From a virus, in the IMG/VR virus record IMGVR_UViG_3300042946_001661, positions 19,589 through 83,588 of that record: 64,000 nucleotides of DNA. One strand, 5' to 3'. Shown in pieces: positions 5,527 to 19,702 of the stretch. Position numbers and translations under genes: made by a program. Position 1 is the stretch's first letter; each line of letters starts with the position of its first letter. The notes beneath the pieces are model-generated. The model had not been told where the DNA came from and ran no database searches. It saw nothing but the letters and a program-made list of their open reading frames with translations.

Positions 5527-6669
5527 TCATTCTTTTGGAATTTTTATAAATCTTGTTCCAAATTTTTTATTTTTGATTTTTCTAACATCTTCTATAATTA
5601 CTTTTTTATTAAACTCAGATGTTGTGTTCCAAGTATCTCTGTCTAAGTACGGTAAAAAATTCATTAAATTATTTTTAATATTAACAAAAATGTCATTTTT
5701 CCAAGAACTCAAATTTCCATTAACTATACTGTTTGTGAAGTAGAATTGAATTTTATTCGGTGTTTCTATTGCTGTGTAGTTGTATAATTCATTTTCCTTT
5801 GTATTAAAGTATCTTGTTCTCTCATCAAAAATCAAAGATGGTGTTCTTGATAATTTTGATAGCCAAGATAAATCATTAAACAAGTCTAGGGTGCATCCCG
5901 TTAGTCTTATAGAAGATAAAACTTTAGATATATCATATTCATTTACAAATATACAATCTGTTTTATTTGTAAATTCATTTGTTAAATCAAACCCTGTTGG
6001 GTGATTCCATATAACAGGAAAAATATTTTCACTCTTCAAATATTTTATTAATTCTATATAAAAATCCTTATTAGATCTAACTTTTATATTTCTTCCATCC
6101 GCCCAAGAGTTCAAATAAATAGAAGGATGAAGAAAAACCTTATACCCAGAATTTTCATTTATTGACCTGAGGGTGTCTTTTCCTAAGATTGCAGAACTTG
6201 GAATCATAGGAAAGTTTAATATAATATCTTCGTATTCTTTCCAAAATTTTTCTTTAAAACCATTTTTATAATACAAATTAAAAGTGCTCGAATTAATTAC
6301 GTTTCTATAATTTTCATTGAAGCTTCTTAATAATTCTAAATATGTTTTTGATTTATTTTCAAATTCATTTGAATTTTCATAAATATTTTTAAAAAATTTG
6401 AAATCAGATAAACTCCAATACTCGTCTGCCTCTTTAAACAAGTGTGAGAATCCTGGGTAGGAACAGACTATAATATATTTTGAATTTTTTGTTTTATTTT
6501 TATAGTGATCAAATAGTATTGATGAAAAAATAAAAGAATGTTTAAAATCACAAAATATAGGTATAAAAAGAAGATTGTCTAAGTCTGTTGGAACTTTTGA
6601 ATCAAAAAAAACTTCTCTTTTAAAGCCTATTCTTTCTGAGGAAACATTCAAGAAATTAATAGTGTTCAT
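5527..6669 (-). CDS. glycosyltransferase family 9-like (heptosyltransferase-like) protein
   Basis: GT-B layout; IIVCSYPG.SHLF.EADEYW and VFLHP...S...R...FY.ELI.YL; paralog of the neighbour. Confidence 0.5.
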   Translation of the reverse strand: MNTINFLNVSSERIGFKREVFFDSKVPTDLDNLLFIPIFCDFKHSFIFSSILFDHYKNKTKNSKYIIVCSYPGFSHLFKEADEYWSLSDFKFFKNIYENSNEFENKSKTYLELLRSFNENYRNVINSSTFNLYYKNGFKEKFWKEYEDIILNFPMIPSSAILGKDTLRSINENSGYKVFLHPSIYLNSWADGRNIKVRSNKDFYIELIKYLKSENIFPVIWNHPTGFDLTNEFTNKTDCIFVNEYDISKVLSSIRLTGCTLDLFNDLSWLSKLSRTPSLIFDERTRYFNTKENELYNYTAIETPNKIQFYFTNSIVNGNLSSWKNDIFVNIKNNLMNFLPYLDRDTWNTTSEFNKKVIIEDVRKIKNKKFGTRFIKIPKE

Positions 6670-6672
6670 AAA

Positions 6673-7791
6673 TCACCAGTTCAACAATCCCTTTTTATCT
6701 AAAGCGTGTTTTACCATATTTTTATCTTCAGTTAAATCTAAAACATAGTCCCAATTATCTTTTTTTATTTCATGTATAGACTTTTCTATAGATAACAAGC
6801 CTTTTTCTGTATCATTTAAAAATGATACATAATTAGATATTATTATCTTTTTTTTGTTAAAATCAGAACTAGCTGCTATTCTACTTCCTTCTTGTCCTCT
6901 AAGAGCCAACTGATCTGCGGATTCTACGAGTATAAAAGGAGTTTTTACAATTGAACTCAATCTTGTCGATGCTGTCCAGAGTTGAATGCTAAACTCTACA
7001 CAACTTAATACAGCCAATGTAAATTCTAAATTTTTTACCATAGCAGTGTTAGAAAAATCAATACAATTTTCCATTTTTAAACTTGATACATTTTCTCCAA
7101 GATAAACAGGAGTAAAATCATTAGAAACCAAAATTTTATTTAATTTATAATAAAAATCTTTAGGTAAATTTCTACCATATGTTTTTCTGTTTCTTGCAAA
7201 AACAGCAACTGCTTTATTTGGAACTATTTTTTTAATTTCATTTAAATAATCTTCTTTTGGTTTTGGAATACTTCTTGAAAATTTTTTATTTTGTATATCT
7301 CCTAATAAAGGAGGGGAGATATTTTTATTACCACATCTTGGACATAAATCAAAAAAAGCATAGCTCGAATGAAAACATTTTTTACAAACATATGTGATTA
7401 AAAAATTGCCAAGATATTGACTTTTAAAAAGTATGCCTATTTTTTTTAGTTCTTTCTCTAATAAATCTATGTTTTTAGACCTAGTCCAAAAAGCATTACA
7501 AGAATCTTTTAACCAATAATCATCTTCTTTTAATTCCCAAAACTCATCAACTAAATGTCTATAAAAATATTCCCTTCCAGTCCATCCAACTAATATTATA
7601 TAATATCCATTAAAAATATTTAATAATTGTGGTATAGAATAATTACAAGCTAAAGTTTCTACTCCCAATTCACAAAAATTAGTAATAATTAAAATCTTAT
7701 CTAGTTTTTTCTTTTTTGTAAATTTATAGACATTAAAACAAAAATTATCTATTTTTTTTTCTTTGATATGCTTGTTTTTAATAAAAAGCAT
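6673..7791 (-). CDS. glycosyltransferase family 9-like protein with CxxC/CxxC insert
   Basis: ELG.E, GREYFYRHLVDEFW, AVFARNRK...RNLP..FY..L, CIDFS, TA..RL...V.TP. Confidence 0.55.
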   Translation of the reverse strand: MLFIKNKHIKEKKIDNFCFNVYKFTKKKKLDKILIITNFCELGVETLACNYSIPQLLNIFNGYYIILVGWTGREYFYRHLVDEFWELKEDDYWLKDSCNAFWTRSKNIDLLEKELKKIGILFKSQYLGNFLITYVCKKCFHSSYAFFDLCPRCGNKNISPPLLGDIQNKKFSRSIPKPKEDYLNEIKKIVPNKAVAVFARNRKTYGRNLPKDFYYKLNKILVSNDFTPVYLGENVSSLKMENCIDFSNTAMVKNLEFTLAVLSCVEFSIQLWTASTRLSSIVKTPFILVESADQLALRGQEGSRIAASSDFNKKKIIISNYVSFLNDTEKGLLSIEKSIHEIKKDNWDYVLDLTEDKNMVKHALDKKGLLNW

Positions 7792-7797
7792 TTTATA

Positions 7798-8325
7798 TCA
7801 TTTAGGTTCCGGTGTGAATCTTAGTGCACCTATCTGATCGCTAATTTTGTCAATCATAGATGCTACTTTTCCCATCTCTTTTTTAATAGAGTCTAATTCT
7901 TTTTCTTTAACACCCATCGCATGTTTAGATAAAAATTGAACCTCTAAGTCGTATAGTTTTTTCTTCAATTCATTAAGTTTATCTAAACTTTCACCTTCAG
8001 TCCAATCGTCTGTTGGTTTATTTTTTGCATCTCTACCCAAATTTGAATAATCTACTGGGTTGCTACTTTTTGCTACCTTAGATGTTTTATTTTCATTTAA
8101 TAGTTGAGCTTCTGAATAATTTGCAATATCATTCCAATAAGAGACACCATCTTGTTCTGGATCTAATTCTGAATCTTTGATATTAATCTGTCCGAAGAAA
8201 TTAGATTTTCCGTCCTCTATTTCTTTGGGTTTTAGGTCAGACTTTGGAAATAAACCATCTTTTAATGCTTTATCCCATTGTTGTGTCCACTTATCGAACT
8301 GATCTTCCATGTTATTGTTGCTCAT
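7798..8325 (-). CDS. late hypothetical protein with C-terminal coiled coil
   Basis: 175 aa; TATATATA 6 nt before ATG. Confidence 0.7.
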   Translation of the reverse strand: MSNNNMEDQFDKWTQQWDKALKDGLFPKSDLKPKEIEDGKSNFFGQINIKDSELDPEQDGVSYWNDIANYSEAQLLNENKTSKVAKSSNPVDYSNLGRDAKNKPTDDWTEGESLDKLNELKKKLYDLEVQFLSKHAMGVKEKELDSIKKEMGKVASMIDKISDQIGALRFTPEPK

Positions 8326-8354
8326 AATAATTATATATACTTAAGTTTTTAATT

Positions 8355-8792
8355 TTAGCAACCTAAAACTATTCTTAATGTTAAGCTAATCGCTTGTAAA
8401 CTTGAAATTAATACAGGATTTGGGAATTTATAATACCATATTACAGAATCAGAATTATTAACAATATAATATCCATATATTGTACTTTCTACAATATCGC
8501 TGCATCCCCAGACCAGAACTTCATCGTAATAAGAAACAACATCCCCTGATTCTACTGTTGCTGCACTCCAGTTATTCTTATCCAGTTCTTTAGAGGAATA
8601 TCCATCAAAAGTACATTCGGTAAACGACAAATTGTTTTCATTCAAGTTGTTCTTAAACAACTTTATCACATAATCATTACAAGAAAGTAGGCTGTCTAAA
8701 TAGTCCGGCTTTGAACTTGGAACAGGCTGTGCGACTCCTAATATTGGCGTTGGCGTTGGAGTTGGAGTTGGAGTTGGGGTTGGAGTTGACAT
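8355..8792 (-). CDS. putative virion protein with N-terminal (Thr-Pro)7; paralog of 58259..58666
   Basis: KLFKN, F.GY, W, IYGYY.V, W...F shared with 58259; TATAAATA 6 nt before ATG. Confidence 0.7.
   Translation of the reverse strand: MSTPTPTPTPTPTPTPILGVAQPVPSSKPDYLDSLLSCNDYVIKLFKNNLNENNLSFTECTFDGYSSKELDKNNWSAATVESGDVVSYYDEVLVWGCSDIVESTIYGYYIVNNSDSVIWYYKFPNPVLISSLQAISLTLRIVLGC
8745..8786 (-). repeat. hexanucleotide ACNCCN repeat encoding (TP)7
   Basis: Directly visible. Confidence 0.85.
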
Positions 8793-8798
8793 ATAGTT

Positions 8799-8806
8799 TA
8801 TTTATA
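8799..8806 (-). promoter_or_regulatory. T4-type late promoter TATAAATA, leaderless position
   Basis: Exact T4 late consensus 6 nt upstream of ATG 8792. Confidence 0.7.
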
Positions 8807-9254
8807 CATTTTCAATAATTTTAGATTTTATTAAAATGTTTTTTTCTTTATCTACAAGATCTTCAGAGTTATATGTTTTTAGAGTTGACCAATGAGGGTC
8901 ATCTTTTGGAATATATTCTTTTTTAGTATAATAAAAAAATTCTGCTATGTATTCGTATTCTTTATTTTCAACTTCATCAACACTCATACCTGAAAGGCGA
9001 TCATGCAAAATTTCTTTTAATACTTTTACCGAATCAATCCATCTGGCTTTTGCCATCTTTTGAATAATAGCAAGAGCTGAATACGCATTGTTTTCTAATG
9101 CATTTATTACATCTTTTTTAAGATCTCCTGGTCCGAATTTTGCTTTTGTTGTATAACATGCAATTACTTCATCTTTGCTAGGTTTATATTTTAAAGAAAC
9201 ATCTTTGAAGTATTCTGAAAAATTACTTTCATCAATTATCAACTCTTTGCTCAT
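8802..9254 (-). CDS. hypothetical protein
   Basis: 150 aa ORF overlapping the end of the dnaE C-piece. Confidence 0.65.
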   Translation of the reverse strand: MSKELIIDESNFSEYFKDVSLKYKPSKDEVIACYTTKAKFGPGDLKKDVINALENNAYSALAIIQKMAKARWIDSVKVLKEILHDRLSGMSVDEVENKEYEYIAEFFYYTKKEYIPKDDPHWSTLKTYNSEDLVDKEKNILIKSKIIENV

Positions 9255-10929
9255 CTTTTTCCTTTTTTCTAAGAACTACTATTCTGTAGTCGTCTTCTTT
9301 ATTAACAGTACTTTTTTTGAAAAAATTTCTTGGTCCAGTGCTAGCTATTGTGTATGTCTTGAAGCCTTTGCTTGGGGCACTTAATCTTACTCTAAGCAAA
9401 CTTCCAGGAACTAATTCATTTTGAAAATTAGCATAATCATCTTTCCATACATTTATAAGACCTTCATCACAATTACAATCTTCTGCTTTTACCTGATAGT
9501 ATTCTGCCTTTTTACCTTTCTTTTTACTACAAGATATTACCTCTATTTCCACAGGAAGAGTATCTCCAGAATCAGGCTCTAGTGTGTCGAAGGTTAATCC
9601 TCCCCTATAATCCGGACTGTCCTTTACATTACTGTGCCAAGCAAATCCATAATACTTCTTTTCACAGGCTACTAAATCATCAAATTCTTTTTTCAAGTTT
9701 TTATCAATTTTAGAATCATCAATAACAAAACCTTCTAGTCTAGGTTTCTCCAAATCTTCTTTATCTTCATATCTTTTTTTGGCAGTCTGTATCTTGTTAA
9801 TCATTTTACATATGTTTTTCCAAGCATCTTTGTTATTAATAATAAGTTTTAAATATCTCTTTTTCCAATCATCACATGATTTACTGCCAATTTTCAAAGA
9901 ATCTAAATCAATATAGTCTATCTCCCCACTAACTACTTTATTTTTAATAAAATCAGTATTCTCTGCCTCCTTGATCATTGAATAAAGAATCTCTTTATTT
10001 TTTTTTGCTGTATTTGCATACCTTTTTTTTCTATCTTGATTTTTCTTTATATAATCTTTATATTTTTCAGAGAACATAAAAAGAGTGTAAGGATCCGAAT
10101 CGGAGAAGCACCTAAGAGAAAGTAATGGCTTTAATACACTAGAATCTGTTCCGAATCTTTCAACAAAATCTTCAAAGTTTTTATATGGCTGTCTCTTTAC
10201 TATTTCTTTTGCTATAGGCTCTCCTATTCCTTTTATATTAGAAAAACCAAAATAAATATCATCTCCTATAAGGCTGAAGTTTTCTTTAGACAAATTAATA
10301 TCAACAGGCTTTAAATCTATTTTATGCTTAGTTATTTCTTTTCTATATTCTTTAATTTTATCGGCATCATTTTCACATGTTAAAATTGCAGTATAAAACT
10401 CATGAGGAAAATGAGACTTTAAATATAAAAGTCTTGAACTAATATGAGTATAACATACTGCATGACTTTTATTGAAGCCATATTCTGCAAAACTTTCAAT
10501 AAGTTTCCATAAATTTTCTAATTCTTCTTCAGAAGAATCCAAGTTCTTTTTTCCATTATTAATAAATGTTTCTTTGTATTTAATAAACTGTTCTACTTTT
10601 TTCTTACTAATAGCCTTTCTTACAGCTTCAACATCTCTCATTGGAATATTTCCAACCATGTTCAATATTTTCATTACTTGTTCTTGGTATACAATTACCC
10701 CATAAGTATCTTTTAATATTTCGTTTAAAATAGGATGTAATTTATATTCTTCTCTGCCTCTTTTTCTTTCTATGAATCTTTCATGCATTTTACAGTTATG
10801 AACAACAATATCTTGAGCAATAAAATTAGGCTCATCGATATAAAGATCATCTTCAATGATTAAAGAAATATCATAACATTCATCTTCGTCAACTTTTTCT
10901 ATAGAAATTATTTCATCATAATCAATCAT
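9232..10929 (-). CDS. dnaE: DNA polymerase III alpha, C-terminal piece (fingers/HhH/OB) preceded by split intein C-fragment
   Basis: IntC ends VVHN|C; then TYGVIVYQEQVM, FAEYGFNKSHA, GFSNIKGIG, EKKYYGF, OB-like tail. Confidence 0.92.
   Translation of the reverse strand: MIDYDEIISIEKVDEDECYDISLIIEDDLYIDEPNFIAQDIVVHNCKMHERFIERKRGREEYKLHPILNEILKDTYGVIVYQEQVMKILNMVGNIPMRDVEAVRKAISKKKVEQFIKYKETFINNGKKNLDSSEEELENLWKLIESFAEYGFNKSHAVCYTHISSRLLYLKSHFPHEFYTAILTCENDADKIKEYRKEITKHKIDLKPVDINLSKENFSLIGDDIYFGFSNIKGIGEPIAKEIVKRQPYKNFEDFVERFGTDSSVLKPLLSLRCFSDSDPYTLFMFSEKYKDYIKKNQDRKKRYANTAKKNKEILYSMIKEAENTDFIKNKVVSGEIDYIDLDSLKIGSKSCDDWKKRYLKLIINNKDAWKNICKMINKIQTAKKRYEDKEDLEKPRLEGFVIDDSKIDKNLKKEFDDLVACEKKYYGFAWHSNVKDSPDYRGGLTFDTLEPDSGDTLPVEIEVISCSKKKGKKAEYYQVKAEDCNCDEGLINVWKDDYANFQNELVPGSLLRVRLSAPSKGFKTYTIASTGPRNFFKKSTVNKEDDYRIVVLRKKEKDEQRVDN
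10795..10929 (-). mobile_element. split intein C-fragment (IntC, 45 aa)
   Basis: DEIISIE...CYDI...PNFIAQDIVVHN followed by +1 Cys (10794-10792). Confidence 0.9.
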
Positions 10930-11935
10930 TTTTTATACTTTCAAAAAAATTAATAACCCTTTTGTCGTTGCGAAACTTTTTTCTACTCATGTTACAATCA
11001 TTGAACTGCCAGTAATGAAAAAGAAAATTATTTTCTATCGCATAACTTTCACCAGCCTTTAATTTTGCTTCAGATTTTTCGGCATCAATTTGATAAACAT
11101 ATCCTGATTTTAACTCTACTAAAAATTTTTCATTAATTAAAAAATCCGGAAAATATTTTTTATTTTTGCCGCAATAATTATAAGCAATACAACAAGGTGT
11201 TGCAAACCAAGATTTAACATATGGGGAATCATCTAGTAGTTCGGAGAGCCATAATTCAAGTCTCGATCTAAGAAAAAAATCACAATTCATTTTTTTTGAA
11301 TAGAATGACTTGCCTGTGCTACTAAATACATAGTCAGGATGAACTTTTCGATAATTATTATTACAGTCTTTAGAGCAAAATTTAATTTTAGGTCTTGGCT
11401 TTCCTCCAACCCATATAATAATTTGTTTATCACAAAATGCACAATTACTATATTTGGCTTTGCCTTTAGCCAAAGGGTATAATCTCTGGTAGTCTTCGGG
11501 TGTCCGCTTTTCTCTCAATTGTTTAAGCTTTTCATTCCCGGCAGATGTGAAAGCAAATAATAATTTTTTTCTTTCTTCGGGAGAAACAGATTTAACCTTA
11601 CTAACCCAAGCGTCTGACGCCATTTTAACAACTTTTTTTCTAGTCTCTGGTTTGAGGATATCTCCTTTTTCATATGCTTTTTTCATACGCTCAGATCTAT
11701 TTTTTTTAACATGTGCTTGATTGCTATAATCTTTGACTTTTTTAGCAATTGAAAATACAGTCTCATTAGATTCTTTGGTTTCACCTTTATTCCAAACATC
11801 GGGTATTTGATTTTTATATTCTTCTGTTTGCTCGGGAAACATTTGCAAATACTTCGTTTTTTTAATTTTATGAGACGAGTTTAAATGTCTGTAAAATTTG
11901 TCTGAAATTTCTCTATTGCATAATTTACATATCAT
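10922..11935 (-). CDS. free-standing putative homing endonuclease (Zn finger/NUMOD-like arm plus TnsA-N-like PD-(D/E)XK domain)
   Basis: CxxC..H...H, WNKG, CAFC..FCSKDC, RSRLE...YFPDF...VELK; lies between the intein halves. Confidence 0.72.
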   Translation of the reverse strand: MICKLCNREISDKFYRHLNSSHKIKKTKYLQMFPEQTEEYKNQIPDVWNKGETKESNETVFSIAKKVKDYSNQAHVKKNRSERMKKAYEKGDILKPETRKKVVKMASDAWVSKVKSVSPEERKKLLFAFTSAGNEKLKQLREKRTPEDYQRLYPLAKGKAKYSNCAFCDKQIIIWVGGKPRPKIKFCSKDCNNNYRKVHPDYVFSSTGKSFYSKKMNCDFFLRSRLELWLSELLDDSPYVKSWFATPCCIAYNYCGKNKKYFPDFLINEKFLVELKSGYVYQIDAEKSEAKLKAGESYAIENNFLFHYWQFNDCNMSRKKFRNDKRVINFFESIKND

Positions 11936-11973
11936 TGTAGCCTCCAGGACTATTCAATAATATGTAGGAGATT

Positions 11974-13287
11974 TTATTTTAATTTTTTAGCAATTTTTTG
12001 CCCAACAGATAATTTTTCGGCTTCAATAAATTCATCTTTATCGGTAAGGATTTTATGTTCATTTGAACACAAAATTACTTTTCCAGATTTAGTTTTAATT
12101 TTTAATAATTTTTTATAACCAGTTTTTATTAAAATAAATTTTTCAGTATATTTAATTTTCTTTTTTTTACTTAAATAGGCAATTTTATCTAACCCAGGCT
12201 TCAAATCTTTTATTTTTTTATATCCAAGATTTGTATTAACTTTTACATCTTTTTGAAGACAATTCAAAGGACCTGGACGATATAATGATGAGTAGGCAAC
12301 AAGATCTTCAAATCTTGTAACACCACCAGCTTTAGCTAATGATCTAATACCTGGGCTATCAAACTGAAAGATACATTTAAGGTCTCCTTCATTAGCCATT
12401 TCTAGGGATTTTAAATCATTCCTATACTCATCTATGTTGCTCCAATTGCCTTGACCAGGAAATGCACATATTTTATCAATACCTTTTCTATCTTTTATAA
12501 GCTTACAACACTTTGCAATCTGAAGAAGATTACTGATCACAAGCAAATCAAATTTAACAAGTCCTACTGGCTGTAGATCTTGTCCATGAAGACCTTCTAC
12601 CCAAGCACTTGCCTGAGGGCTATCTTTTCTTTTTATAAGAGGAACAAGATCGGTTAAAGGAATAGAGCTTACAATCAAACCTCCAGCATGTATACCTGTC
12701 CCTCTGTTTCTATTAATTAGTTTTTGAGCAGCCTTTGCTATATCTGGGTGTTCTTCGCAGTATTTCTTAAGCATAGGATCAGTTTTCATAGCTGAATCCC
12801 ATGTGAGAACTTTTCCTTCATCATCTTTTGTTTGAAGATTTGTTGTTAAAGCGAGTATTTCTCCTCTTTCTTCTCCGTGAACTCTAACCATATCGATAAG
12901 AGAGGATTTAATACCAAAAGTAGTATAGTTTCCTATATTACAGACATATTGCTCTCCAAATGTTTTAGGAGCCCATTCATTCTTTAAAAAATCACGAACA
13001 GCAGGAATAAAATCCACATCGATATCCGGAGAATCACCTTGTACATAATTTGGATCTTTTTCTATATCAAAATTTGGTACTATTTCTAGTAGCCAACACA
13101 CCAAAAGATTATTTTCATTATCTGGATAATTTACATTTCTGGTCACCATATCTAGAAAGTAATTTTCCTTATTTTGAGAAATTATCTCTTGTTTTTCCCA
13201 TTCTAATCTTTTTTGATATCTTTTATCTTCATACAATCCTTTTTCTTTTAATTTTTCTTCACAAATTTTAAATATGTTTGATTTCAT
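11974..13287 (-). CDS. dnaE: DNA polymerase III alpha, middle piece (palm Asp residues, thumb) fused to split intein N-fragment
   Basis: PDIDVDF, GIHAGG, VKFDLL, IFQF, LYRPGPLN|CL... Confidence 0.92.
   Translation of the reverse strand: MKSNIFKICEEKLKEKGLYEDKRYQKRLEWEKQEIISQNKENYFLDMVTRNVNYPDNENNLLVCWLLEIVPNFDIEKDPNYVQGDSPDIDVDFIPAVRDFLKNEWAPKTFGEQYVCNIGNYTTFGIKSSLIDMVRVHGEERGEILALTTNLQTKDDEGKVLTWDSAMKTDPMLKKYCEEHPDIAKAAQKLINRNRGTGIHAGGLIVSSIPLTDLVPLIKRKDSPQASAWVEGLHGQDLQPVGLVKFDLLVISNLLQIAKCCKLIKDRKGIDKICAFPGQGNWSNIDEYRNDLKSLEMANEGDLKCIFQFDSPGIRSLAKAGGVTRFEDLVAYSSLYRPGPLNCLQKDVKVNTNLGYKKIKDLKPGLDKIAYLSKKKKIKYTEKFILIKTGYKKLLKIKTKSGKVILCSNEHKILTDKDEFIEAEKLSVGQKIAKKLK
11977..12261 (-). mobile_element. 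split intein N-fragment (IntN, 95 aa)
   Basis: Block A CLQKDVKVNT..G...IKDL; block B ILCSNEHKILT; ends L..G.KI then stop. Confidence 0.9.
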
Positions 13288-13311
13288 AAAAATATTTTTA
13301 TTACTCTATAT

Positions 13312-13319
13312 TATATATA
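13312..13319. promoter_or_regulatory. palindromic TATATATA box between divergent dnaE-middle and LAGLIDADG genes
   Basis: Same box as other late sites, but in a very AT-rich context. Confidence 0.4.
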
Positions 13320-13346
13320 GATTATCTACTCACATCAAGGACATAT

Positions 13347-14441
13347 ATGAAAAAATCAATGAAAAAAGCAATTCTTATTTACAAAGAAGGAAAATCAATA
13401 GAAAAGTCCGCAGCTGAAGCGGAAGTATCTTTTCAAGGACTTCAATATCAACTTAAAAAACTTGGTTTAACAAGAAGTGCCGAAGAAGCCGCTCACAAGA
13501 GCTATACATCAGAGAGTTTAAAAGAAGCATTGAGTCTTTACGAAAATGGAAAAAGTTTAAATGAAGTTAATAAAATAACAAAGGTTTCTCTACACACATT
13601 GAGAAAAGAAATAAAAAGATTAAAAATATCAAAAAAGAAAATTATTAAATATGATCATATATTAGAAAAATCAATAGATTTATACTTATCAGGATTATCC
13701 ACCATAAAGGTAAAAAATATAACTGGTATAGGGCTTGGCAAGTTAACAAAAAATCTTAAAAAAAGAGGGCTTATTCGTAGTAATAAAATAAATTCAAGAA
13801 AATATCATGTAAATTATGATTTTTTTAAAAATATAGATAATGAACACAAAGCGTATTGGCTTGGTTTTATTTATGCTGACGGTTACATTAGCCGAATAAA
13901 TAAAAATAAAAAAATTGGAATATCATTAAACATAAAAGATATGGATCATCTAGAGGTTTTTAAAAAACAAATTAATGCTACATATCCAATAAATATTTAT
14001 AAGTCGAAGTCTTTTGGAGGAGTAGAAATAGAATATTGCAGACTACTTATTACTTCAGATCAATTGTTTGATGATTTAATTGACAAAGGAGTTTTCGAAA
14101 AAAAGACATTAATATTAAAATTTCCAAATGAATCTATAGTTCCAAAAAACTTACAACATCATTTTATAAGAGGATATTTTGATGGTGATGGATCTTTCAA
14201 AAAAAGTAATGGTAAATATTATGTTTTTAATCTATGTGGTACAAAAGAATTTCTACTAAAATGTCAAGAAATACTTCATAAAAATACAAAACTAGAAAAA
14301 AGGCACAAGGATAATAAAAACAACTATAGTTTTTCGATAGGAGGCAGATTACAAGCCAAAAAAATAGGTGATTACTTATACAAGAATGCTACTGTATACT
14401 TAGAAAGAAAATATAACAGATATAAAGAAATGTGTTTTTAA
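13347..14441 (+). CDS. LAGLIDADG homing endonuclease with N-terminal HTH repeats
   Basis: AYWLGFIYADG and FIRGYFDGDG motifs; three HTH-like repeats. Confidence 0.9.
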   Translation: MKKSMKKAILIYKEGKSIEKSAAEAEVSFQGLQYQLKKLGLTRSAEEAAHKSYTSESLKEALSLYENGKSLNEVNKITKVSLHTLRKEIKRLKISKKKIIKYDHILEKSIDLYLSGLSTIKVKNITGIGLGKLTKNLKKRGLIRSNKINSRKYHVNYDFFKNIDNEHKAYWLGFIYADGYISRINKNKKIGISLNIKDMDHLEVFKKQINATYPINIYKSKSFGGVEIEYCRLLITSDQLFDDLIDKGVFEKKTLILKFPNESIVPKNLQHHFIRGYFDGDGSFKKSNGKYYVFNLCGTKEFLLKCQEILHKNTKLEKRHKDNKNNYSFSIGGRLQAKKIGDYLYKNATVYLERKYNRYKEMCF

Positions 14442-14465
14442 TTAAATAAAATTTTAGTACAGATG

Positions 14466-14473
14466 TATAAATA
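14466..14473 (+). promoter_or_regulatory. T4-type late promoter TATAAATA
   Basis: Exact consensus followed by AGGAG and ATG 14490. Confidence 0.65.
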
Positions 14474-14489
14474 TAATCAAAGGAGTAAA

Positions 14490-14663
14490 ATGAAAGTAGA
14501 CAAGAAAAACGCCATGATTGGCGGAGTCTGTGCTGGTTTGTCGGATTCAACTGGGATACCGACTGCGGTTTTTAGGCTTGCTTTTCTATTTGCATTTTTA
14601 CTTGCTGGGATGGGTCCTATAATTTATATCATTTTATGGATCATGATGCAAACAAAAGAATAA
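14490..14663 (+). CDS. PspC-domain membrane protein
   Basis: MIGGVCAGL....GI....RL.F ... YIILWI.M signature. Confidence 0.88.
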   Translation: MKVDKKNAMIGGVCAGLSDSTGIPTAVFRLAFLFAFLLAGMGPIIYIILWIMMQTKE

Positions 14664-14673
14664 TGGAGAAAAA

Positions 14674-15621
14674 ATGCCTTTCAAAAAATTTAATGAATTC
14701 TTAAACGAACAAAAGAAAAATAAGAAGACTAAAAAAAGTGATAAAAAGGCATTAGGAATTAGTGGCGATAAGTCTCTTGTTTATAAACCAAAAGTTCATA
14801 AATATGATAAAATTAAAGACAAGGGACTCGGAAATATTGGAGATGAAAAAAACATCTACGAACCAGACACAGGTCCAGAGCTACAGAAAAAAGCTCCAGA
14901 ATGGCATAAAACAAACATTAAAGAATGGTTAAACAAAACAAAAAAATTATCTGTTTCTGAATTTGCAAAAAAAATTCAAGAAGAAAAAAGTGTAAAAGTA
15001 AATATTAATAAAATAAAAAATGCTGAAGATCTTATTGGCAATTTTGTAGAAACATTAAAAAGCAATCCAAAATTAATAGAGGTTGCATCAAGAGAGTTTA
15101 ACAGATCCGGATTACTTGAAGGTTTTATTGTAGAGCTCAGTAAAATAAAAAGATCAAAAAGAATACACGAATCAATTAGTGAGCCTGTTGGGTTTGAAGA
15201 CGAAGAAGGCATGGAAGGCATGGAAGATGAAGAAGGCATGGAAGGCATGGAAGATGAAGAAGGCATGGAAGATGAAGAAGGCATGGAAGATGAAGAAGGC
15301 ATGGAAGACGAAGAAGGCATGGAAGACGAAGAAGGCATGGAAGACGAAGAAGGCATGGAAGACGAAGAAGGCATGGAAGACGAAGAAGGCATGGAAGACG
15401 AAGAAGAAGGTTATAGACGCCATCGTCATCGTCACCATCATCATGACGAAGAAGATGATGAGTTTGGGGACGAAGAAATGGAAGATGAAGATGATAGCGA
15501 AAATTTAGATAGCGATGATCTTGAGGATCATGGTTATAATAAAAACCAAGATATGGAAGATGATTCGCCCCTAGGGAGAAGATCTGGCATGCGTAGGGAT
15601 TATTTTTCAGACGAAATTTAA
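14674..15621 (+). CDS. acidic repeat protein with capsid-targeting-like N-terminus (putative internal head/scaffold protein)
   Basis: MPFKKFNEFLNE start, EDEEGM repeats, His/Arg patch. Confidence 0.7.
   Translation: MPFKKFNEFLNEQKKNKKTKKSDKKALGISGDKSLVYKPKVHKYDKIKDKGLGNIGDEKNIYEPDTGPELQKKAPEWHKTNIKEWLNKTKKLSVSEFAKKIQEEKSVKVNINKIKNAEDLIGNFVETLKSNPKLIEVASREFNRSGLLEGFIVELSKIKRSKRIHESISEPVGFEDEEGMEGMEDEEGMEGMEDEEGMEDEEGMEDEEGMEDEEGMEDEEGMEDEEGMEDEEGMEDEEGMEDEEEGYRRHRHRHHHHDEEDDEFGDEEMEDEDDSENLDSDDLEDHGYNKNQDMEDDSPLGRRSGMRRDYFSDEI
15196..15408 (+). repeat. 18-nt coding tandem repeat GAAGAYGAAGAAGGCATG x10 plus two 9-nt half units
   Basis: Directly visible; encodes EDEEGM. Confidence 0.95.
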
Positions 15622-15655
15622 AAAATAAACAATTAACAATTAACAATTATAATTT

Positions 15656-15835
15656 ATGAAAAGTTTTAAACAATTCAAAGAAGAAAAAGAAAAAGAAGAA
15701 CTAAAAAATAATGATAGGGTAGCAAAAGCTATAAAAATGGGAAATGCCGCGGGCAGTCTTCCACTTAGCTCTCATAAAGAACGAAACGAACGAAGAAAAG
15801 ACAACATCCCGTCGAAGTACTACAAAGGAAAGTGA
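15656..15835 (+). CDS. 59 aa protein MKSFKQFKEE... (not in ORF track)
   Basis: Translated by hand; has the shared capsid-targeting-like start. Confidence 0.7.
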   Translation: MKSFKQFKEEKEKEELKNNDRVAKAIKMGNAAGSLPLSSHKERNERRKDNIPSKYYKGK

Positions 15836-15849
15836 AATAATTTACTAAA

Positions 15850-17238
15850 TTAATCCTTAAATTCTAAAATCATACTTCTCCCACCTCTAGATTCTGAAAG
15901 AAATCTAGAGAATAGTAAGTCTTCTTTTATAGGATCAACATCCGTTATTCCTAGACAGTAGCATACGAGAGAACCTCCAGCACTCCCTCGACCCGGTCCT
16001 ACTGCATCGCTTCCATCGCCCCATCCTAATATTTCAGGACAAACTCGTCGGGCTTCATCTGTCATCATTTTTTGAATAAGAAAATAACTACTAAATCCTT
16101 TTCTCTTGATTAATGATATCTCTTCTTTTATTCTTGAAGAATATACTTTTGTTTTTGGTAAATTTCTTTTATTAAAACCTTGTACGACCAAATCTCTTAA
16201 TTTGTCATCAGAATTTTCAATATTAGGCAGCTTTAAACTTCTATCGAAGGTCACACCTTTTGCCATTTCGCATATTTTAACTGTATTCTTTTTAGCTTCT
16301 TGAAACAATTCATATGGAATAATATCTTTGTAATCACTTAACCATTTTTCATTAAGCTCTTCTTCACTCTTCATCCAAAGATTAGCATCTTGAAGCTCAA
16401 AAAAATCAACCATTGCATCTTTTTGTTTTGCTTCTTCTATCTCCTTTAAAGTTCTATTTGTTTGAATCATCAACATTAATCTTTGATAATGACTATCTTC
16501 TTTTTTGCAATAATGAACATCACAACTTACGATCAAAGGTAATTTATATCTTTCATGACACTTGATTATAAAAGCGTCATAAGCAAACTGTTTTTTAAAG
16601 TCTAGTAGCATTAATTCTAAATAATAATGCTCTCTACCAAACATTTCCAAATGCTTTTCAAGCATTTGGAATCCAGCTTCTTCTCCACCCTTGTCAAAAG
16701 CTCTACCTATCTCGCTATTATAGCAACAGCTTGTAAAAATAAGACCTTCTCTATGCTTTTTTAATTGTTCGTAATTGACTCTAGGCTTTCTATAGAAGCC
16801 TTTAGTCCAACCCCAACTAGTTAAACGTACTAAATTTTTATAGCCCTCTAAATTGTACGCTATAGCCAGCAAGTGAGGACTAGCTTTAAAAACATCCATC
16901 TCATCTGGAGATAATTCTTTTGTAAAATCTTGAAGATCCTCAAGACCAGAACTTTCTGGTTGTAATGAATTTATATATAATTCTGAAGCAAATATTGGGG
17001 ATAATTTATTTTTATCTTTATGTTTATCACATATCTTATCGCATATTTTAATTTGTCTGGGTACAGCTCCTAACATTCCGTGATCTGAAACTGTTAAGAA
17101 TTTTTGATTAATTTCAACGGCGCGATTACCTGCTTCCTCAACGGTTTGAAAACCATCAAGCAAAGAATAGTCTGTATGGAGGTGAAGATGTTCAAATCCA
17201 ACAATTTCTACCTTATCTTTCATGCAACAACTTTCCAT
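15850..17238 (-). CDS. dnaE: DNA polymerase III alpha, N-terminal piece (PHP domain plus first half of palm)
   Basis: HLHLHTDYSLLDG, SDHG, GFY.KPR, DVHY, GPGRGSAGGSLVCY.LGIT.VDP, LLF.RFL...R; stops before PDxD. Confidence 0.93.
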   Translation of the reverse strand: MESCCMKDKVEIVGFEHLHLHTDYSLLDGFQTVEEAGNRAVEINQKFLTVSDHGMLGAVPRQIKICDKICDKHKDKNKLSPIFASELYINSLQPESSGLEDLQDFTKELSPDEMDVFKASPHLLAIAYNLEGYKNLVRLTSWGWTKGFYRKPRVNYEQLKKHREGLIFTSCCYNSEIGRAFDKGGEEAGFQMLEKHLEMFGREHYYLELMLLDFKKQFAYDAFIIKCHERYKLPLIVSCDVHYCKKEDSHYQRLMLMIQTNRTLKEIEEAKQKDAMVDFFELQDANLWMKSEEELNEKWLSDYKDIIPYELFQEAKKNTVKICEMAKGVTFDRSLKLPNIENSDDKLRDLVVQGFNKRNLPKTKVYSSRIKEEISLIKRKGFSSYFLIQKMMTDEARRVCPEILGWGDGSDAVGPGRGSAGGSLVCYCLGITDVDPIKEDLLFSRFLSESRGGRSMILEFKD

Positions 17239-17405
17239 TCTTTACCAGTAAAAATGTATAACACGTTAAGATTATTGTTAAAATAAAGATCCCCAACTTT
17301 TAAATTTTTTGGAGGTAATCCTACATACACCCCACTATACTGTTTTTTCGAAGTTTTATTTATAAAAGATTCAAATAATTTATTTTTTTCTTTTTTTATA
17401 GCCAT
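17220..17405 (-). CDS. small hypothetical protein
   Basis: GDLYFN...LYIFTG.EW; TGC-TAGAAT 7 nt before ATG 17405. Confidence 0.55.
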   Translation of the reverse strand: MAIKKEKNKLFESFINKTSKKQYSGVYVGLPPKNLKVGDLYFNNNLNVLYIFTGKEWKVVA

Positions 17406-17445
17406 GAATATAATTCTAGCAGAAGGCTGCTGATTTAGCAATCTA

Positions 17446-17473
17446 TTGACTTTTTTAAAAATTTTTGTATCAT
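17446..17473 (+). promoter_or_regulatory. sigma70-type promoter TTGACT-N16-TATCAT, leaderless position
   Basis: -10 box ends 7 nt before ATG 17481. Confidence 0.6.
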
Positions 17474-17480
17474 AAATTAC

Positions 17481-18014
17481 ATGAACAGATTAAAAAATCA
17501 AAGAGCTTATCTTGCAGGAGCTATAGATCGTTGTCCAAATTTAGGAATTGCCTGGAGAGAATCCATAACTCCTTTTTTAAAAGAAAAAGGAGTTACTGTT
17601 TTAAATCCAATGAAAAAATCTATAAATCTTGGCAATGAAACAGGTGAATCTAGAGATCATAGGCTTAAACTTAAAGAGTCTGAAAACTATGATCAACTAA
17701 GTGTTATGATGAAAGAAATAAGAAATATTGATCTTAGAATGGTTGATATAAGTGATTTTTTGATAGTTAATATAGATTTAGATATACACCCATGCGGCAC
17801 CTACGAGGAAATTTTTATAGCAAACAGATCAAAAAAACCAATAATAATTCACATGGAACAAGGAAAAATCAAAACTCCAGACTGGTTATTTGGAACATTA
17901 CCTCATAGCATGTTTTTTTCTACATGGGAAGATATTAAAAAATATTTAACACATGTAGATAGCGAAGAATTTATAGAAACTAAAAACAGATGGAAATTTT
18001 TTAATTTATGTTAG
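17481..18014 (+). CDS. nucleoside 2-deoxyribosyltransferase-like protein
   Basis: YLAGAI, WR, LNP, DL..V..SD, GT.EE motifs. Confidence 0.75.
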   Translation: MNRLKNQRAYLAGAIDRCPNLGIAWRESITPFLKEKGVTVLNPMKKSINLGNETGESRDHRLKLKESENYDQLSVMMKEIRNIDLRMVDISDFLIVNIDLDIHPCGTYEEIFIANRSKKPIIIHMEQGKIKTPDWLFGTLPHSMFFSTWEDIKKYLTHVDSEEFIETKNRWKFFNLC

Positions 18015-19064: not shown

Positions 19065-19702
19065 AATGGAAAAAAGTTTGGATTGGTAAAAAAAACATTA
19101 ATTTCATTGAAATTAGAAACATCTATTGGCTCCCAAGTTTCTGGTCTTGGTCCCCAATCACTCGGTGCCATTTTTTCTATAATAAACCCTTTGTCAAACA
19201 TCCATTTTTTAACATCTTCAAGAGTATATTGATCTTTGTATAAGGTATTATTTTTGTAGTTTACAGTCTCCAAGACACCAGCTTTAACAATTTTATAAAA
19301 ATTATTGAGACCAATTAAAACATTTAAATCATGACCTTGTGCATCACAATGAAGCCAATCTATTCTTTTTATATTATTTTCAATTATAAAGTTTTCTAGG
19401 GTTATTACATCTACCTCTATTTTATCTATATTATCTAATTTAACATTATTCCAATTATTTTTTTCATTAATATCTGACAGAGAACTACAATCTTCAGATT
19501 TTAAAATATTAAATGAATGTCTCCCAGAAAAATCACTTACTGCTTTACATGTTAAAGTATAATTAGGCAAATTTTTTATTTTTGAATTAATTATATTACA
19601 AAATCCTGGGTGTGGTTCAAAAGCAAAAACAAAATCGCCATTCATGGCTCTCCATATAGAATCTTCCCCATCATTTGCACCTATATCAAATACTATATTC
19701 AT
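19061..19702 (-). CDS. FkbM-family methyltransferase
   Basis: DIGAN.G, FEP, AVSD, ID.LHCDAQG.D..VL.G. Confidence 0.88.
   Translation of the reverse strand: MNIVFDIGANDGEDSIWRAMNGDFVFAFEPHPGFCNIINSKIKNLPNYTLTCKAVSDFSGRHSFNILKSEDCSSLSDINEKNNWNNVKLDNIDKIEVDVITLENFIIENNIKRIDWLHCDAQGHDLNVLIGLNNFYKIVKAGVLETVNYKNNTLYKDQYTLEDVKKWMFDKGFIIEKMAPSDWGPRPETWEPIDVSNFNEINVFFTNPNFFPL

Follow-up and report, generated by a model that had tools for sequence, protein, structure and literature searches.

A phage DnaE polymerase encoded in three genes: a recurrent break inside the palm domain and a sporadic split intein

How can a replicative DNA polymerase work when its gene lies in three pieces, one of the gaps cutting through the active site? 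Replicative polymerases are textbook single-chain catalytic subunits, and the locus studied here encodes DnaE in three genes separated by two breaks. The window, i.e., the whole stretch of DNA that was analyzed, comprises 64 kb (~29% G+C) of the 83.6-kb IMG/VR virus record IMGVR_UViG_3300042946_001661 (positions 19,589 to 83,588 of the record). CheckV estimates the record to be ~17% complete, by which the window is a fragment of a very large phage, and near-identical DNA was found in more than 20 lake/freshwater metagenomes from different studies (2016-2024), with no RNA run listed among the public runs that hold it. The listing of open reading frames (ORFs) and Pfam searches placed consecutive parts of DnaE in three minus-strand ORFs:

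15850..17238, minus strand: P1, the N-terminal DnaE gene (462 aa), with the PHP domain and the first palm module
11974-13287, minus strand: P2 (437 aa), with an N-terminal extension, an extein core and the N-terminal part of a split intein (IntN)
9232-10929, minus strand: P3 (565 aa), with the C-terminal part of the intein (IntC), the remaining finger domain and HHH_6

Read from P1 through P2 to P3, the Pfam domains come in the canonical DnaE order (PHP, palm [PF07733], fingers, HhH). The motifs that an initial annotation of this DNA had reported in order over the three ORFs are indeed there: GPGRGS, SRFL and R in P1; PDIDVD, VKFD and RPGP in P2; YQEQ and FNKSH in P3, where VVHN/C was found as well. 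The palm does not lie on a single polypeptide, as P1 stops after residue 462 and P2 is 2.5 kb away (break 1); P2 and P3 are separated by break 2. Judging from the sequence, the three genes probably provide one C-family polymerase, in which P2 and P3 would be joined by trans-splicing, P1 would be bound non-covalently to form a composite active site, and the fission would have arisen by partial duplication.

Layout of the three genes and distribution of break 1

The window derives from a metagenomic contig, and its layout might be the artefact of a chimeric assembly. This was checked with contig pieces that show zero differences from the window, come from four lake/freshwater metagenomes of separate studies, and together span every junction:

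10912-12535: P3, the nuclease gene of break 2 and P2
12546-13762 and 12897-14232: P2 and the adjacent LAGLIDADG gene
13748-15231: the island between P2 and P1
15377-17238: the island and P1

Because these identical pieces stem from four independent runs, misassembly, which the initial annotation had named as a possible refutation, is excluded and the layout is genuine. The same layout was also assembled independently in dozens of IMG/VR contigs. A chimera is accordingly extremely improbable, although a single run shows one weak joint (13258 to 15614), of which one side is covered by no more than 21 letters.

Break 1 is no peculiarity of this phage, as many relatives, which form a large group, have the same break point as a fixed feature. 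Scanning IMG/VR with P1 gave 60 loci of 50-90% identity, in 26 of which both DnaE halves are in reach. All 26 have the break at the same Pfam position (98/100): P1 ends shortly after SRF(L/M)S..RGG(R/K)..L.F, and a P2-type gene begins 1-8 kb downstream. In each of five larger contigs (188-343 kb; completeness up to 69%), PF07733 has exactly two half-matches, which meet at positions 98 and 98/100, and no third PF07733 match that could mark an intact or third dnaE copy was found in them. A search limited to proteins of 254-809 aa returned 1532 P1-like proteins (E<=1e-10); the best 120 of these all combine PHP with a partial PF07733, and most measure 408-490 aa. Among the best 150 P2 representatives (50% identity), 106 have a P2-type N-terminus and nine are intact, PHP-containing proteins. 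The C-termini of P1 and the N-termini of P2 vary in length among the relatives.

The survey of break points in related phages that the initial annotation had proposed thus returned break 1 in 26 of 26 loci and break 2 in two (L025 and L026). These distributions suggest that break 1 is an old, fixed gene fission. With break 1 fixed in the relatives, the double fracture resolves into an old two-gene DnaE and a sporadic intein fracture of known type. Break 2 is of a known kind, and it is for break 1 that we found no prior description. Our literature search, of limited coverage, returned no split phage DnaE beyond the intein cases, which does not prove novelty.

The closest catalogued relative is the uncultured 595-kb phage LR756511, with 51% identity to P1 and 44% to P2. 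Its DnaE is collinear with that of the window, and the genes downstream are syntenic with window positions 6673-8325; unlike the window, it encodes DnaE in a single 1179-aa ORF with one palm module and has neither island nor intein. Window positions 6673-8325 and L003 1563-3825 are syntenic, with a 372-aa protein (CxxC..CxxC) and a 175-aa protein downstream of DnaE. The synteny with genes beside the LR756511 DnaE supports kinship with published huge phages. Bacillus phage Edson (PV796108.1, 234 kb) was considered as a cultured example and rejected, as its break lies after the DxD strand and is a different interruption. Its DnaE occupies two ORFs annotated 'hypothetical' (5920-9027), with PF07733 positions 111/108 and a gap of ~750 nt, which is probably an intron or other insertion.

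A palm module on both sides of break 1 and the proposed assembly

P1 matches PHP (E 8e-31) and profile positions 2-98 of DNA_pol3_alpha (PF07733). Nine of nine PHP metal-ligand positions are occupied (H19, H21, D28, H53, E86, H122, C172, D240 and H242), at a spacing that we take to be that of DnaE enzymes with an active PHP exonuclease, and by these residues the domain looks like an active proofreader. The first palm module holds GPGRGS at residues 414-419, followed by SRFL..R..RGGR. The protein terminates in a short conserved strand (..L.F; SMILEFKD in the window) at the place of the DxD strand, degenerate and without the aspartates. P2 continues the fold with two parts ahead of its IntN:

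13036..13287, minus strand: N-terminal extension (residues 1-84), a copy of the palm module in which NENN replaces the GPGRGS loop and RFL..R is missing
12262..13035, minus strand: extein core (residues 85-342), with the DxD strand, thumb, VKFD and the first part of the fingers, through RPGPLN

In P2, residues 85-249 match DNA_pol3_alpha positions 100-259, followed by matches to the finger domain and to the N-terminal part of an intein. Its key residues are D88, D90 and D92 of the DxD strand and K245, F246 and D247 of VKFD. That break 1 parts the GRGS motif and arginines from the DxD aspartates, as the initial annotation had stated, is borne out by the orthologue alignments, where both sets are invariant: G414, R417, G418, S419, R445 and R451 in 27 orthologues of P1, and D88, D90, D92, K245 and D247 in those of the P2 core.

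Break 1 is nevertheless not the simple cut that had been assumed, as P2 residues 1-84 repeat the module that ends P1. The profile of P2 orthologues matches the E. coli, Taq and Mtb alpha subunits (E 1e-32 to 1e-23) and forms one continuous alignment to E. coli alpha 313-644, in which 10 residues are missing, exactly those of VPVGPGRGSG. By this one-stretch alignment, residues 1-84 correspond to the helices, GS loop and helix before the DxD strand. Comparison of the extension with the P1 tail module by hhalign gave 91% probability (E 1e-6), and BLASTP of P1 against P2 gave no significant similarity, so the homology of the overlap is detectable by profiles only. On intact dnaE genes, the tblastn matches of P1 and P2 overlap by ~94 codons. 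The extension has invariant residues of its own (R27, E31, Y43, N57, N60, L61, L66 and L67), and its dN/dS of 0.12-0.35, compared with 0.03-0.14 for the P2 core (dS near saturation), indicates purifying selection.

AlphaFold2 (AF2) models of the monomers are weakly in line with this division. For P1 (pLDDT 79), the top fold matches are the Taq, Mtb and E. coli Pol III alpha subunits; the PHP domain folds confidently, and the GS loop and tail have pLDDT <50. The P1 model superposes on Pol III alpha with TM ~0.53 and rmsd ~12 Å, an interdomain arrangement too loose to place the duplicated modules. The P2 model gives the extension a pLDDT of 78-95 and the DxD strand one of <50; with pTM 0.31 and rmsd ~27 Å to Pol III alpha, it too is too loose between domains to locate the modules. 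The low pLDDT of the GS loop and tail in P1 and of the DxD strand in P2 weakly supports a composite site.

In the solved ternary complex of DnaE, it is the GS motif together with these arginines that binds the incoming triphosphate, and no active C-family polymerase is known to lack a GS motif. As the GS motif and arginines are invariant in P1 and the DxD aspartates in P2, the active site would be a composite of the two proteins. The simplest origin of such an arrangement is an insertion with partial duplication of ~90-150 codons, followed by reciprocal loss. An ancestral dnaE would have been interrupted by foreign DNA, minimally the acidic-protein gene described below, with the helices, GS loop, helix and DxD strand duplicated on both sides of the insert. 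The copies would then have degenerated in complementary ways, P1 retaining GPGRGS and the arginines that bind phosphate but no longer the aspartates of its last strand, and P2 retaining the DxD strand but neither GS loop nor arginines. Between the halves, accessory genes would have come to occupy an insertion island of 1-13 kb. In the resulting enzyme, the dNTP-binding half of the palm would come from P1, together with the PHP domain, and P2-P3 would supply the metal-binding half along with thumb, fingers and DNA-binding domains. Translated separately, P1 and P2-P3 would associate non-covalently into a composite active site, with the redundant conserved pieces, i.e., the P2 extension and the P1 tail strand, as docking interface. 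We infer this binding and the composite site from the alignments; a heteromer of P1 with P2-P3 is the best reading because purifying selection conserves both halves and no intact copy was found in the five larger contigs.

Several observations weigh against this assembly. The NENN of the P2 extension (N57, N59 and N60) is an invariant motif of its own at the place of the GS loop, and the extension may thus fill the canonical position and leave the GS loop of P1 outside the active site. The near-saturation of dS weakens the dN/dS estimates. A quick maximum-likelihood tree built from 124 rows of the P2 core has intact forms in at least three places among the split ones (starred branches), which implies that the history is not a simple single fission. 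Finally, an intact dnaE could lie in the part of the genome that the record does not cover.

The first of these points leads to an alternative in which P2-P3 would be a self-sufficient, PHP-less polymerase, P1 a separate PHP exonuclease or pyrophosphatase subunit with a vestigial palm as docking handle, and the site not composite. The extension is conserved, carries its invariant Asn residues at the GS-loop position, is modeled at the high pLDDT given above and adjoins the DxD strand covalently, as in the canonical fold, and the PHP domain of P1 has its full set of metal-ligand positions. However, the GPGRGS, SRF and RGG(R/K) arginines of P1 are invariant in 27 sequences of 56-89% identity, which is hard to explain for a mere handle, and we judge this alternative to be unlikely, though not negligible. 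The last point bears on whether the three pieces are decaying remnants, the phage being replicated by an intact DnaE encoded elsewhere or by the host polymerase. The ~17% completeness of the record and the intact gene of LR756511 would allow for this. Yet the pieces have no internal stops, their catalytic residues are invariant and the dN/dS of the P2 core is low; moreover, the two-gene layout extends across hundreds of clusters, and the five related contigs hold no third PF07733 match. Decay is thus very improbable.

Could break 1 be healed covalently, by RNA trans-splicing, an unrecognized intron, ribosomal bypass or a very short split intein? The initial annotation had described it as lacking an intein or intron and as filled with ~2.5 kb of opposite-strand genes, and our analysis agrees. 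A recoding-like site elsewhere in the P1 of relatives suggests that unusual decoding may exist in this phage group. Nevertheless, Rfam returned no significant intron or other RNA family in 8500-18000, where the sole match at E<=1 was a chance U6atac; the gap measures 1-13 kb, is mostly antisense and varies in gene content; and the P1 tails and P2 heads have no conserved Cys/Ser/Thr or HN junction residues. A covalent join at the RNA or protein level would moreover create a tandem module repeat, since the two sides overlap by the duplicated module. We therefore give a covalent repair hardly any probability. A short atypical split intein was considered specifically and rejected, as the P1 tail start has no Cys/Ser, P2 has no HN with a nucleophile, and the P2 head is DnaE-derived. 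Non-covalent association of P1 with P2-P3 is favored because tails and heads vary, junction nucleophiles are missing, the island is antisense and variable, and P2 has its own Shine-Dalgarno (SD) sequence in relatives and a promoter-like site in the window.

The island between P1 and P2, the history of the split and other interruptions

The gap between P1 and P2 measures 2.5 kb in the window, where it holds four plus-strand ORFs, and 1-13 kb across relatives. From P1 toward P2 it contains:

15656..15835, plus strand: 59-aa ORF, ending 14 bp from the P1 stop (convergent), with no Pfam or PHROG match
14674..15621, plus strand: acidic repeat protein (315 aa) of family 'c0', as grouped by tblastn and by clustering the ORFs of the gaps
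14463..14663, plus strand: small membrane protein with a PspC domain (Pfam PspC E 4e-17)
13347..14441, plus strand: gene for a free-standing LAGLIDADG homing endonuclease, oriented divergently to P2 and with HTH repeats at the N-terminus
13288..13346, no strand assigned: divergent intergenic region (59 bp) with a promoter-like site for P2

In the window, as in 22 of 26 loci, the island genes lie opposite to the DnaE strand. The gene of the acidic protein is the only one constant between P1 and P2, present in all 26 by ORF clustering and mostly antisense to the DnaE halves; in the smallest gap (1 kb, L017) it stands alone. Members of the family share an N-terminal F.EY, GLG..GD..L.Y.P, a helical middle and a long acidic repeat tail, the repeat length of which differs between metagenomes (joints at ~15381-15698, three runs). 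The protein matched no Pfam family, gave no useful Atlas lead and had one PHROG match, a weak one to a tail fiber protein (E 4e-4). No homologue was found in the LR756511 genome, where an empty answer shows little. A role as assembly or accessory factor would be pure speculation. The PspC gene recurs in 5 loci, and further recurrent genes encode an AAA ATPase, a glycosyltransferase/methyltransferase (GT2/methyltransferase fusion) and a carbamoyltransferase. In the L013 record (G004:C1:40254-53394) the DnaE halves are ~13 kb apart. The window and its 90% relative L004 are the only 2 of 26 loci that have the LAGLIDADG gene (Pfam LAGLIDADG_3 E 7e-11; phrog_4645 endonuclease E 1e-65). The gap is thus a variable accessory-gene island and not a homing-endonuclease cassette. 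Nor do P1 and P2 appear from their sequence to form one operon: the island is antisense, P2 in relatives is preceded by its own SD, and in the window a consensus scan found a promoter-like site for P2 (TTGATG-17-TATAAT, 13338-13310, minus strand), such sites being no more numerous in the region than in shuffled sequences.

As to the history of the split, a smaller tree rooted on distant intact forms is compatible with a single origin. An N-terminal extension that lacks GRGS also occurs in more distant groups, reading N.NG in one and TNKS.S in another. For the deep split-type representative P0228, no related loci were found in IMG/VR. Either the split is very old and was followed by re-fusion or allele exchange through recombination, or it is a mobile split cassette. 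A more far-reaching combination, of an obligate two-subunit polymerase with a domain-swap 'zipper' interface, exchange of the split allele with intact alleles on more than one occasion and an undescribed recoding of P1 in about half of the relatives, is possible but doubtful.

The P1 of the window is uninterrupted. In ~30 of the 60 relatives, a stop (TAG, rarely TGA) directly follows the PHP motif EHLHLH. This stop begins an insertion of 5, 6, 7 or 8 nt, behind which the remaining P1 continues in +1, in -1 or in frame (L009:7979-8040, L023:2607-2670, L041:712-775, L039:8022-8085, L017:7949-8010 and L022:7939-8000, for example). Three loci have instead a 6-nt TAACTW insertion five codons further on, and four have a 40-41-nt G+C hairpin insertion at the EHLHLH site. 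The upstream mini-ORF and the codons of the new frame (e.g., AGY TAY = SY) are conserved, with synonymous changes only. The insertion looks like programmed recoding (frameshift or bypass) or a separate peptide of 14-20 aa, and is reminiscent of the bypass in T4 gene 60. The only tRNA in the window is a tRNA-Asn (GTT) at 1733-1815; no suppressor tRNA was seen there.

The DnaE of these phages is also an intein hot spot, with at least five sites including the split intein at RPGPLN/C. In-frame P1 inteins lie at IFA/CELY (residue 85), ND/C (~residue 240) and, within the GS motif, GPGRG/S, and a P3 intein lies at FNK/SH, in the region of the cyanobacterial site (intein loci: L037:6863-8001, L060:6860-8001, L030:9218-10404, L025:16422-17089 and L017:11643-13233). 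P0270, a PHP-less DnaE of 873 aa, starts with an intein C-part (..VHN/S), followed by AGGSLV..LLFERFL and then DxD. Its fracture, distinct from break 1, falls right within the GS motif, which in L030 holds a contiguous intein.

If the proposed assembly is true, these phages would offer a natural and widespread DnaE whose dNTP-binding and metal-binding halves lie on separate polypeptides, a system for studying how the Pol-beta-like palm of the C family assembles and how an essential enzyme tolerates fission by partial duplication and reciprocal loss, and a ready basis for engineering split polymerases. The locus further indicates that a polymerase gene can carry an accessory-gene island of 1-13 kb for a long evolutionary time. 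Split genes of this kind will be systematically mislabeled as truncated "DNA polymerase III alpha" when huge phages are annotated automatically.

Break 2 and comparison with known genes in pieces

At break 2, the split intein reported by the initial annotation was confirmed, with IntN at the end of P2 and IntC at the start of P3. The features of this region are:

11977..12261, minus strand: IntN (95 aa), with Cys1 (CLQKD) and block B CSNEH
11926..11966, minus strand: RNA hairpin over the GGAGG SD and ATG of the nuclease gene (minimum free energy -15.4 kcal/mol, z -3.7)
10922..11935, minus strand: free-standing nuclease gene (337 aa), with a Cys/His finger at the N-terminus of the protein and a PD-(D/E)xK-type domain at its C-terminus
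10795..10929, minus strand: IntC (45 aa), with VVHN before Cys+1 (Cys46 of P3)
9232..10794, minus strand: P3 extein (residues 46-565), with the remaining fingers (YQEQ, FNKSH), HhH and the C-terminal region

The IntN Cys is residue 343 of P2, and the P2 extein hence comprises residues 1-342. IntN scored below the cutoff of Pfam Intein_splicing and weakly matched the gp41-1 split intein (E 0.08); the two parts do have Cys1 and the block-B His in IntN, and HN with the nucleophile Cys in IntC. P3 matches the finger domain (E 1e-20) and HHH_6 (E 1e-14) and is collinear with the intact LR756511 DnaE. In intein-free relatives, RPGPLN-MKMHER runs uninterrupted across the intein site; the split intein lies between N342 and Cys, and contiguous relatives have Met at the place of this Cys. 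From these features we infer that P2 and P3 are trans-spliced, the split intein joining them covalently at the protein level. The nuclease matches DUF7487 (E 2e-7) and TnsA-like N (E 3e-4), both PD-(D/E)xK-type domains, and had no match among PDB sequences, Vsr included. The nuclease gene, with its stop, reaches 8 nt into the start of P3 (ATGATTGA). Among ~26 relatives, only L025 and L026 have the break-2 split intein and the nuclease gene, the latter as an orthologue of 55% identity at the identical location. The break would have been left by the invasion of an intein by the free-standing nuclease gene.

Break 2 is thus a recent, sporadic fractured gene of an already known kind. Fractured genes, in which a split intein is combined with a free-standing endonuclease gene, were described for, among others, three metagenomic DnaE loci, one of them from a freshwater lake (Dassa 2009; PMC2677866). 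As there, the host gene lies in two same-strand ORFs, one ending with IntN and the other beginning with IntC, a nuclease gene of restriction-endonuclease-like fold lies between them on the same strand, a hairpin covers the nuclease SD and ATG, and the nuclease stop overlaps the IntC start (PMC2677866). The endonucleases described in that paper are Vsr-like (or GIY-YIG); the one found here matches DUF7487/TnsA-like domains in Pfam and nothing in PDB. The arrangement also resembles the cyanobacterial DnaE intein (Ssp/Npu), where DnaE in two genes is likewise rejoined by a naturally split intein. However, the cyanobacterial site is AEY/CFNKSH, which is uninterrupted in this phage, and the cyanobacterial halves are at distant loci with no endonuclease gene between them, unlike the halves here. 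With a Lys-rich IntN, an acidic IntC and a non-cyanobacterial DnaE site, the break-2 intein may serve as a tool, though its kind is not new.

For break 1, the initial annotation had invoked the split of nrdA by mobE in phage Aeh1 (Friedrich et al., 2007; Gibb and Edgell, 2007, as summarized in PMC2677866). Both are intein-less splits of an essential enzyme of nucleotide metabolism or replication into two genes, whose products would have to come together non-covalently in a composite active site, and in both Aeh1 and this window a homing endonuclease gene lies between the halves. The precedent fits poorly beyond this. In Aeh1 the endonuclease gene is on the same strand, in one operon, and is the cause of the split, and the summary in PMC2677866 reports no duplication; break 1 has a mostly antisense island, an overlapping module and a gap of 1-13 kb, and the split is fixed across a large phage group. 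The homing endonuclease occurs in 2 of 26 loci, and the constant inserted element is not a recognizable endonuclease. A second precedent is the family B polymerase gp43, which several T4-like phages, Aeromonas phage 25 among them, encode as a pair of genes (Petrov and Karam, cited in PMC2677866). It too is a phage replicative polymerase in two genes that assemble at the protein level, with an insert of 2-3 kb that sometimes contains a homing endonuclease gene (PMC2677866). It is not known for an overlapping duplication or a cut between GS and DxD motifs, and the enzyme studied here is of family C with a Pol-beta-like palm. Break 1 differs from these known genes in pieces in its enzyme family, in its cut inside the minimal nucleotidyltransferase fold, in its duplicated module, in its antisense and variable island that has no constant endonuclease, and in its fixation.

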